Origin: Escherichia phage vB_Eco_T-01
DNA length: 64,000 nucleotides
Reading direction: 5' to 3' (one strand)
Sequence record: PQ438391.1
Shown: in pieces, positions 23,518 to 25,097 of the stretch
How positions within the stretch are numbered: position 1 is the first letter of the stretch
Layout of the letters: each line of letters opens with the position of its first letter
Notes under the pieces: model-generated
The model's input: only the letters and a program-made list of their open reading frames with translations
Told to the model about the DNA's origin: nothing
Databases searched by the model: none
Program-made: the position numbers and the translations under genes

Positions 23518-24258
23518 ATGATTAGTGACTCTATGACAGTTGAAGAAATCCGTCTTCATTTGGGGCTTGCATTAAAAGAAAAAGATTTCGTAGTTGATAA
23601 AACTGGCGTTAAAACTATTGAAATTATTGGCGCATCATTTGTAGCAGATGAACCGTTTATTTTTGGCGCTCTTAATGATGAATACATTCAGCGTGAACTT
23701 GAATGGTATAAATCTAAAAGCTTGTTTGTTAAAGATATTCCAGGTGAAACGCCGAAGATTTGGCAACAAGTAGCATCTTCTAAAGGCGAAATTAACTCAA
23801 ATTATGGCTGGGCTATTTGGTCAGAAGATAACTATGCCCAGTATGATATGTGTTTAGCTGAACTTGGTCAAAATCCTGATTCTCGACGTGGTATCATGAT
23901 TTATACTCGTCCATCCATGCAATTTGACTACAATAAAGATGGTATGTCAGATTTCATGTGTACTAATACAGTACAGTACCTGATTCGTGATAAGAAAGTC
24001 AATGCAGTAGTAAGCATGCGCTCAAATGACGTGGTCTTCGGATTCCGTAATGATTATGCATGGCAAAAATACGTATTAGATAAATTAGTATCTGATTTGA
24101 ATGCAGGCGATTCAACTCGTCAGTATAAAGCAGGTTCTATTATATGGAATGTCGGAAGTCTTCATGTATATTCTCGTCATTTTTACTTGGTTGATCATTG
24201 GTGGAATACTGGCGAAACTCATATTGTGAAAAAAGACTATAAAGGTGAGTGGAAATGA
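23518..24258 (+). CDS. 42: dCMP hydroxymethylase gp42
   Basis: 246-aa ORF; thymidylate-synthase-like fold; recognised as T4 gp42. Confidence 0.95.
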   Translation: MISDSMTVEEIRLHLGLALKEKDFVVDKTGVKTIEIIGASFVADEPFIFGALNDEYIQRELEWYKSKSLFVKDIPGETPKIWQQVASSKGEINSNYGWAIWSEDNYAQYDMCLAELGQNPDSRRGIMIYTRPSMQFDYNKDGMSDFMCTNTVQYLIRDKKVNAVVSMRSNDVVFGFRNDYAWQKYVLDKLVSDLNAGDSTRQYKAGSIIWNVGSLHVYSRHFYLVDHWWNTGETHIVKKDYKGEWK

Positions 24259-25097
24259 TTCAATTCGTAATTCCAAGTTATCAGCGTGTCGGGGCAGTTT
24301 CTGCCCTTGATATGTTTCCGACTGATTATGAACCCCATATTGTAGTGCGTGAACATGAAGAAAAAGCTTATCATGACGCCTATGGGTCTAGAGCTAAAAT
24401 TATAACTATTCCTGATGATGTAAACGGAATTGCCGGTACTCGTAAAGCAATTACTGATATGTATGCAGGTCAACGAATATGGATGATTGACGATGATACT
24501 ACTATTCGTATGAGTTCAATGCGAAAAAGAGATGATCGTCGTTGTGTGGATAAAGTCAATCAATTGACTCGTGAACAGTTCTATGAATTGATTCAATATG
24601 TTGAGGATGCCATGGATTGTGGGTATTATCATGGCCATGCTCGTCTACCTATTTTTAAAATTACTTCATCTTGGGGTAATTATCGTGAAAATTCATATGG
24701 ATTCACGAATACATGGTATGACCTCGGAAAACTTACGACAGAACAAATTGGGTATGGAAAAATTGATTTATGCGAAGATATGTATGCATTTCTCAATTTA
24801 ATTAATCAAGGTTATCCGCATTTGGCCTTGTTCAAATATCTAGTTGTATCTGGAAAAGCACAAGCTCCTGGCGGGTGCAGTTCAATTCGTAGTAATTCTA
24901 AACATAATAGAGCGCTTGAGCAGATTAATAGAGAGTTTCCAGAGCAAGCTCGTTGGAAAACTTCTAATATTGAAAAACGAAAATCGTTGGGTGAAGAAGA
25001 CGAGCCATTAAAGGTTCTTCGCATGTGTGTTTCGCGCAAAGAAAAATCAGAAGCATTTCATAAGTTTAATGCTATTCATCCGATAGCAGTTGATTAA
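24249..25097 (+). CDS. GT-A-type glycosyltransferase at the beta-gt locus (probable HMC-DNA glucosyl modifying enzyme)
   Basis: 282 aa; N-terminal FVIPSYQR and DDD (DxD-like) motif; length differs from 351-aa T4 beta-gt. Confidence 0.7.
   Translation: MEMIQFVIPSYQRVGAVSALDMFPTDYEPHIVVREHEEKAYHDAYGSRAKIITIPDDVNGIAGTRKAITDMYAGQRIWMIDDDTTIRMSSMRKRDDRRCVDKVNQLTREQFYELIQYVEDAMDCGYYHGHARLPIFKITSSWGNYRENSYGFTNTWYDLGKLTTEQIGYGKIDLCEDMYAFLNLINQGYPHLALFKYLVVSGKAQAPGGCSSIRSNSKHNRALEQINREFPEQARWKTSNIEKRKSLGEEDEPLKVLRMCVSRKEKSEAFHKFNAIHPIAVD

Follow-up and report, generated by a model that had tools for sequence, protein, structure and literature searches.

The window analyzed here is a 64-kb segment of a T4-like (Tequatrovirus) genome of approximately 167 kb, and its DNA is 96-98% identical to that of many sequenced coliphages, including REP1, RB18, CM8, teqhal and JK1. 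Gene 42 (23518-24258), the gene under study, ggt (24255-25097), and uvsX (25175-26356) follow one another in the window. This arrangement is the same in RB18, T2, T6 and REP1, and the wider order 43 - imm.1 - imm - 42 - ggt - uvsX - 40 - 41 agrees with that of T2, T6 and RB18. The sole stretch that diverges strongly from REP1, the best overall relative, is found at 40522-43176 (78-87% identity or no match); it corresponds to the region of small ORFs upstream of gene 39, the motB/cef neighbourhood, and is covered by Kha5h among others.

The ORF that contains ggt runs on the plus strand from 24249 to 25097, and its mechanical start, the GTG at 24249, yields a protein of 282 amino acids. Two codons 3' of this GTG lies an ATG (24255) that overlaps the stop codon of gene 42 as ATGA (24255-24258) and is preceded, at a distance of 5 nt, by a Shine-Dalgarno-like GGTGAG on the plus strand (24244-24249; read from the sequence). 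The annotations of RB18, T2 and REP1 use the same start, giving a CDS of 843 nt. On the basis of the ATGA overlap, the Shine-Dalgarno-like site and the annotated starts, we place the start of ggt at ATG 24255, and the protein therefore has 280 amino acids, encoded with the stop codon at 24255-25097 on the plus strand. A preliminary description of this DNA had located a 282-residue ORF between gene 42 and uvsX; the location stands, and the length has to be corrected. The overlap of the ATG with the gene 42 stop codon suggests that the translation of ggt may be coupled to that of gene 42.

A homologue of the ggt protein is encoded in 688 phage records, which excludes a chance ORF. A horizontally foreign origin of the gene was considered: the GC content of ggt (37.4%) is close to that of its neighbours (35.9-37.3%), and there is thus no compositional sign of foreign DNA. 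A sigma-70 promoter scan around ggt returned 18 candidates against 14.1 +/- 3.7 in shuffled sequences, which is not above expectation, and neither Rfam nor a tRNA scan yielded a match in the window. Within codons 13-18 of ggt lies a GC-rich hairpin, GGGGCAGTTTCTGCCCT (24291-24307, plus strand), with a 7-bp stem and a 3-nt loop; it has a terminator-like score without a clean T-run, and is also found at the 5' end of ggt in T2 and T6. The spacer between ggt and uvsX (25098-25174, 77 nt) is without segA, and a tblastn search of the whole window with T4 SegA found no match. In this spacer, TGCCTAAA (25098-25105) is positioned 10 nt upstream of a TATAAT (25116-25121), an arrangement that, judged by eye, resembles a putative MotA-box middle promoter for uvsX.

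Identity of the encoded protein

The ggt protein matches PHROG 842, 'beta-glucosyl-HMC-alpha-glucosyltransferase', with an E-value of 8.7e-89, and the Pfam family PF20691 (TET-associated glycosyltransferase, TAGT) with 41.3 bits against a gathering cutoff of 27.5. The Pfam match extends over protein residues 3-207 and model positions 2-205 of 205; NCBIfam has no model that matches the protein. Alignment to the T2/T6 beta-alpha-glucosyltransferase, proposed in the preliminary description, yielded 99% identity over 280 amino acids both to T2 (MH751506, AP018813) and to T6 (MH550421, AP018814). Three residues differ from T2 (R11H, H40Y and P251S, window residue first), and H40N, D55G and R106H distinguish the window protein from the readable T6 sequence. 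A protein of Escherichia phage vB-Eco-KMB42 is 100% identical. A relative search of IMG/VR returned five loci, all 98-100% identical; since these are too few for a survey of variants, a profile search of a library of representatives was used for that purpose.

T4 beta-gt, in turn, bears no similarity to the ggt protein by BLASTP (best E 2.2), in agreement with the earlier remark that the 351-residue T4 enzyme at the syntenic position is unlike this protein, and the 64 kb yielded no match to T4 beta-gt in a tblastn search, the best E-value being 1.5. The window gene is an orthologue of the T2 and T6 genes and a member of PF20691, and the 64 kb hold no T4-type beta-gt. We conclude with high confidence that it encodes a T2/T6-type beta-glucosyl-HMC-alpha-glucosyltransferase (ba-gt, ggt), a GT-A-fold enzyme of the TAGT family.

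GT-A fold and signature residues

Searching PDB chains with the sequence found nothing meaningful (E 1.6, to an unrelated PNPOx-like protein). An AlphaFold2 model built from a 10-sequence alignment was of moderate quality (pLDDT 70, pTM 0.72), with pLDDT values of 84-95 in the N-terminal 80 residues and below 50 at residues 126-150, 202-211 and the C-terminus. The single Rossmann-like alpha/beta/alpha domain of this model matches solved GT-A structures, among them the WrtF fucosyltransferase (score 9.8), GnT-I (9.3), RmlT (9.2) and GlfT2 (8.8), followed by TarP, hyaluronan synthase and AvpGT (8.7 each) and TarS (8.0). Sugar-nucleotidyltransferases of the same superfold are also among the structure matches; the 60 matches listed include no recognisable GT-B enzyme. 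When the family profile was compared with the PDB, the GT2 beta-1,3-glucosyltransferase 9jma was found at a marginal E-value of 0.25, a match used here solely to show motif correspondence: IPSYQR and DDD of ggt align with IPTYNR and DDDD of 9jma.

When 1.84 billion representatives of 50%-identity clusters were searched with a profile, 2147 family members were found at E <= 0.001, and conservation was calculated from an alignment of 143 of the best 150 of these with the window protein. Fourteen positions are near-invariant (I6, P7, R11, R63, D79, D80, D81, D175, G186, G206, G207, C208, R212 and P229), each common to at least 86% of the 143 representatives, and the window protein keeps all of them. 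The N-terminal nucleotide-sugar-binding motif FVIPSYQR (residues 4-11; 24264-24287, plus strand) contains I6 (93%), P7 (89%) and R11 (142 of 142). The stretch WMIDDDTT (residues 76-83; 24480-24503) contains the DDD of residues 79-81 (24489-24497, plus strand), the DxD-type metal/UDP-binding motif of GT-A enzymes, conserved at 98% (D79), 100% (D80) and 95% (D81). In the model this DDD directly follows the strand formed by residues 74-77, in keeping with the DxD found after the fourth strand in GT-A enzymes. E174-D175 (24774-24779, plus strand) is a candidate for the catalytic base by analogy with the 'ED' of GT2 enzymes, D175 being present in 144 of 144 sequences and E174 in 78%. Finally, GGCSSIR (residues 206-212; 24870-24890, plus strand) is a conserved motif specific to the family (G206 99%, G207 100%, C208 86%, R212 97%).

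The structure matches, the profile alignment and the conservation of the motifs support the GT-A/DxD reading. Both hallmark sequences named in the preliminary description, FVIPSYQR and WMIDDDTT, are present, and the GT-A assignment that it had based on them is borne out by the structure matches, by the 95-100% conservation of the DDD and by membership in PF20691. The T6 enzyme has likewise been assigned to PF20691, with a GT-A fold from an AF3 model and a position as sister to GT2 (PMC13216743). By analogy with GT2 enzymes, the DDD would hold the metal and UDP, and the invariant D175 would act as catalytic base.

The window protein shares IPxxxR, R63, DDD, (E)D and GGC..R with 143 diverse representatives of PF20691. 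Its weak Pfam match (41 bits) indicates that the T-even enzymes are a divergent branch of this family. To judge from the family name, other members occur together with TET-type 5mC oxidases and would modify 5hmC that arises within DNA; here, in contrast, gp42 makes hmC as a nucleotide, and the enzyme acts on the glucose carried by alpha-glucosyl-hmC. Inverting GT-A enzymes of GT2 (AvpGT 9jma, BcsA 9fmv/4p00, TarP 6h1j and TarS 5tze) are 9-18% identical to ggt with no significant sequence E-value, and ggt differs from them by its DNA-borne acceptor and by the C-terminal GGC..R motif.

Partner genes and predicted modification of the DNA

The window carries the genes expected to supply the substrate of the enzyme. 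Gene 42 (23518-24258, plus strand), for the dCMP hydroxymethylase that makes the hmC precursor, matches PF00303 (thymidylate synthase family) at E 1.1e-15, is 95% identical in nucleotide sequence to T4 gene 42 and is annotated as dCMP hydroxymethylase in relatives. The DNA alpha-glucosyltransferase gene, alpha-gt, is found at 11062-12264 on the plus strand, where the preliminary description had placed it, with a match to PF11440 of 783.7 bits (E 2.6e-236); its homologues are annotated as alpha-glucosyltransferase in REP1 and others. Gene 56, encoding dCTPase/dUTPase, lies at 31432-31950 on the plus strand (tblastn with T4 gp56: 70% identity over 172 amino acids, E 5e-77).

Between alpha-gt and gene 47, an ORF of 207 amino acids (12441-13064, plus strand) resembles homing endonucleases: its PHROG matches are 10820, labelled 'HNH endonuclease' (E 1e-94), and phrog_314, labelled homing endonuclease, while Pfam gives a weak GIY-YIG domain at 21.4 bits, just under the cutoff. 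In view of this GIY-YIG match, the HNH label of its relatives may be wrong. In the window, 267 nt (31165-31431) separate gene 61 from gene 56; T4 has dam between these two genes and segF beside gene 56, and a tblastn search of the whole window with T4 SegF found no match.

The chemistry proposed here, and the DNA composition that would result from it, are drawn from the literature on T2, T6 and close relatives. Through gp42 and gp56, the latter removing dCTP, hmC would replace C in the phage DNA, and alpha-gt would place an alpha-linked glucose on most hmC after replication. The ggt enzyme would then extend alpha-glucosyl-hmC by a further glucose, taken from UDP-glucose and attached in beta linkage to the 6-OH of the first, forming gentiobiosyl-hmC. 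With UDP-alpha-glucose as donor and a beta-linked product, this reaction would invert the configuration. The virion DNA is thus expected to contain hmC, alpha-glucosyl-hmC and gentiobiosyl-hmC, without beta-glucosyl-hmC. The glucosyltransferases draw on the UDP-glucose of the host (PMC6024577), and the product of the T2 and T6 enzymes is beta-1,6-glucosyl-alpha-glucosyl-hmC (PMC6024577, PMC11078745). Furthermore, HPLC/MS of ten wild Tequatrovirus isolates that possess alpha-gt and a TAGT gene and lack beta-gt revealed gentiobiosyl-hmC but no beta-glucosyl-hmC (PMC13390438). Phages JK1 and teqhal, which are among the nearest relatives of the window, are listed in Table 1 of that study as the closest relatives of the measured phages EL and EH2 (PMC13390438). 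The T2/T6-type di-glucosylation that the preliminary description gave as an example is supported by the 99% identity to T2/T6 ba-gt and with the presence of alpha-gt.

T4 beta-gt and ggt occupy the same slot, use UDP-glucose as donor, form a beta-linked product, act after alpha-gt and alter sensitivity to host defences. The T4 enzyme, however, is a GT-B protein of 351 amino acids, whereas ggt has 280 residues and a GT-A fold. The acceptor of T4 beta-gt is not a sugar but the hydroxymethyl group of those hmC residues that alpha-gt has not glucosylated, and its product is a monosaccharide. One could suppose that ggt is nevertheless a functional analogue of T4 beta-gt that places a single beta-glucose directly on hmC, as its locus, the labels of several records (b-gt, beta-glucosyltransferase or putative beta-glucosyltransferase) and the activity on 5hmC that we would expect of other TAGT members from the Pfam family name might imply. 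We regard this as very improbable: the T2/T6 enzyme, 99% identical to the window protein, makes a disaccharide, T2 and T6 DNA is without beta-glucosyl-hmC (PMC11078745), and wild relatives with ggt show no beta-5-glc-mdC (PMC13390438). T6 deprived of ba-gt retains only alpha-glucosyl-hmC and is more sensitive to Brig1 (PMC11078745), and the ggt and T4 beta-gt sequences are dissimilar. The 'b-gt' label of GenBank records, which appears to be an annotation transferred by position, was rejected. More remote still is a different sugar donor or linkage, resulting in a disaccharide other than gentiobiose. Donor specificity of glycosyltransferases can shift with few substitutions, and residue 40 is H in the window, where T6 has N and most close relatives have Y; against this, only 1-4 substitutions separate the window protein from relatives that have been characterised or measured, position 40 varies within the family, no conserved position differs, and an identical protein occurs in another isolate (vB-Eco-KMB42). 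The synthesis of gentiobiosyl-hmC remains the preferred reading.

Extent of di-glucosylation

Gentiobiosyl-hmC accounts for 5% of the hmC of T2 and 72% of that of T6, with approximately 25% left bare (PMC6024577, PMC11078745). Enzymes as similar as those of T2 and T6 (99% identity) correspond to 5% and 72%, and the extent of di-glucosylation is not readable from the sequence. Among the ten wild isolates, hmC makes up about one third and gentiobiosyl-hmC about two thirds in seven, and three contain hmC, glucosyl-hmC and gentiobiosyl-hmC at about 1:2:2; the latter three carry a Dam-like gene (PMC13390438). A tblastn search with T4 Dam found nothing between genes 61 and 56 or elsewhere in the 64 kb, and the window without dam resembles the seven isolates with two thirds gentiobiosyl-hmC, as a correlation only.

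The window and T2/T6 genes, which are alike in identity, position between 42 and uvsX, ATGA overlap and partner alpha-gt, are separated by point differences only. Residue 11 (24285-24287) is R in the window, T6, RB18, REP1, the five IMG/VR contigs and 142 of 142 representatives, and is H in both T2 records; the other change specific to T2, P251S, affects an unconserved position. R11H is a candidate cause of the low gentiobiosylation of T2. Both deposited T6 copies carry lesions, as opposed to the intact window copy: in MH550421 codon 10 is changed from CAG to TAG (Q10 amber), and in AP018814 one GAT is lost from the GATGATGAT run that encodes the DDD (codons 79-81). These lesions may reflect drift of laboratory stocks or sequencing errors. 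Neither the observations on R11 nor those on the T6 lesions make the ggt of the window itself unusual.

These comparisons bear on the possibility that ggt, although present, has only a small effect, as it does in T2, leaving the DNA mostly mono-alpha-glucosylated with a few per cent of gentiobiosyl-hmC. T2 itself, with its 99%-identical gene and its low content of the disaccharide, sets the precedent, and the 1:2:2 group of wild relatives is not almost entirely gentiobiosylated. The window copy, however, has R11 in place of H11, keeps the other conserved residues in an intact frame, and shares its genotype with the seven of ten measured isolates that have about two thirds gentiobiosyl-hmC and, like the window, no dam. 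A minor contribution of ggt is accordingly improbable in our judgment. Taken together, R11, the intact conserved residues and the missing dam lean toward a pattern like that of T6 and the wild isolates rather than that of T2. We are doubtful of the stronger proposition that the ratio of mono- to di-glucosylated hmC could be read from ggt itself, such that the window copy would specify the T6/wild pattern of mostly gentiobiosyl-hmC and R11H the approximately 5% of T2, although it is conceivable.

An exchangeable cassette between gene 42 and uvsX

A TAGT gene in a position syntenic with T4 beta-gt has been described (PMC13390438). Local blastn comparison of the window with T4 shows that homology ends at 24236, 22 nt before the gene 42 stop codon, and resumes at 25187, in codon 5 of uvsX. 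These break points, together with the T4 annotation, define an exchangeable cassette at 24237-25186 (plus strand). T4 carries in this slot beta-gt (351 amino acids), a spacer and the homing endonuclease gene segA. Its beta-gt/segA spacer (NC_000866 24238-24262, minus strand) contains a copy, matching at 23 of 25 nt (17 exact), of the 3' end of ggt at 25075-25099 of the window. This relic, the last codons of ggt, directly abuts the ATG of segA. A ggt-segA-uvsX layout is present in 235Ecol030PP, ESh36, PD112 and CE1, and the homology of T4 to these phages starts exactly at the relic; HMD-9, which has beta-gt and no segA, keeps 13 nt of it. The arrangement in T4 thus has the appearance of a beta-gt cassette fused to a junction made of the ggt 3' end and segA, and this comparison of sequences suggests that the ggt arrangement may be the older one at the locus, a ggt gene having given way to the beta-gt cassette in T4.

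The trailer of T4 beta-gt, before segA, also contains an unannotated, hydrophobic mini-ORF of 24 codons on the minus strand, MLGPLLLIIGLGLFAFWDFFCYID; it lies at 3290-3364 in the T4 segment numbering in which the relic is at 3239-3263, occurs with small changes in HMD-9 and is absent from the window. In some phages, namely vB-Eco-KMB26 (OR539218.1 23132-25047), Serratia PS2 and Enterobacter myPSH1140, the TAGT gene directly adjoins a homologue of beta-gt that shares 49-55% identity with the T4 protein. This raises the question of whether the first glucose extended by a TAGT enzyme encoded beside a beta-gt homologue could be beta-linked instead of alpha-linked.

Discussion

A ggt homologue of at least 95% identity is found in 471 of the 688 phage records, and a T4-type beta-gt of at least 90% identity in 29 records. 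Among sequenced phages, those of the ggt genotype greatly outnumber those of the T4 type, and the genotype is the commonest among the sequenced relatives of the window rather than an oddity. The literature already covers the gene and the enzyme it encodes, including the fold, the location with respect to T4 beta-gt and the consequences for host defence, and none of this is new. Many GenBank records call ggt 'hypothetical protein', 'b-gt' or 'beta-glucosyltransferase', and these labels may explain its unfamiliar appearance.

Possession of ggt is expected to change the sensitivity of a phage to defences that depend on DNA modification. In vitro, the Brig1 glycosylase leaves gentiobiosyl-hmC intact (PMC11078745), and the BapA deglucosylase frees no glucose from T6 DNA, which contains mostly gentiobiosyl-hmC (bioRxiv 10.64898/2026.02.25.707755); gentiobiosyl-hmC is still a target of GmrSD (PMC13216743). 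The approximately 25-33% of hmC that is left bare would make such phages targets of McrBC-type and Brig3-type systems. Thus, a genotype of alpha-gt and a TAGT-type ba-gt, with no beta-gt, predicts which modification-dependent host defences a phage escapes and to which it succumbs, and its recognition is of use in annotation and in the choice of therapeutic phages.
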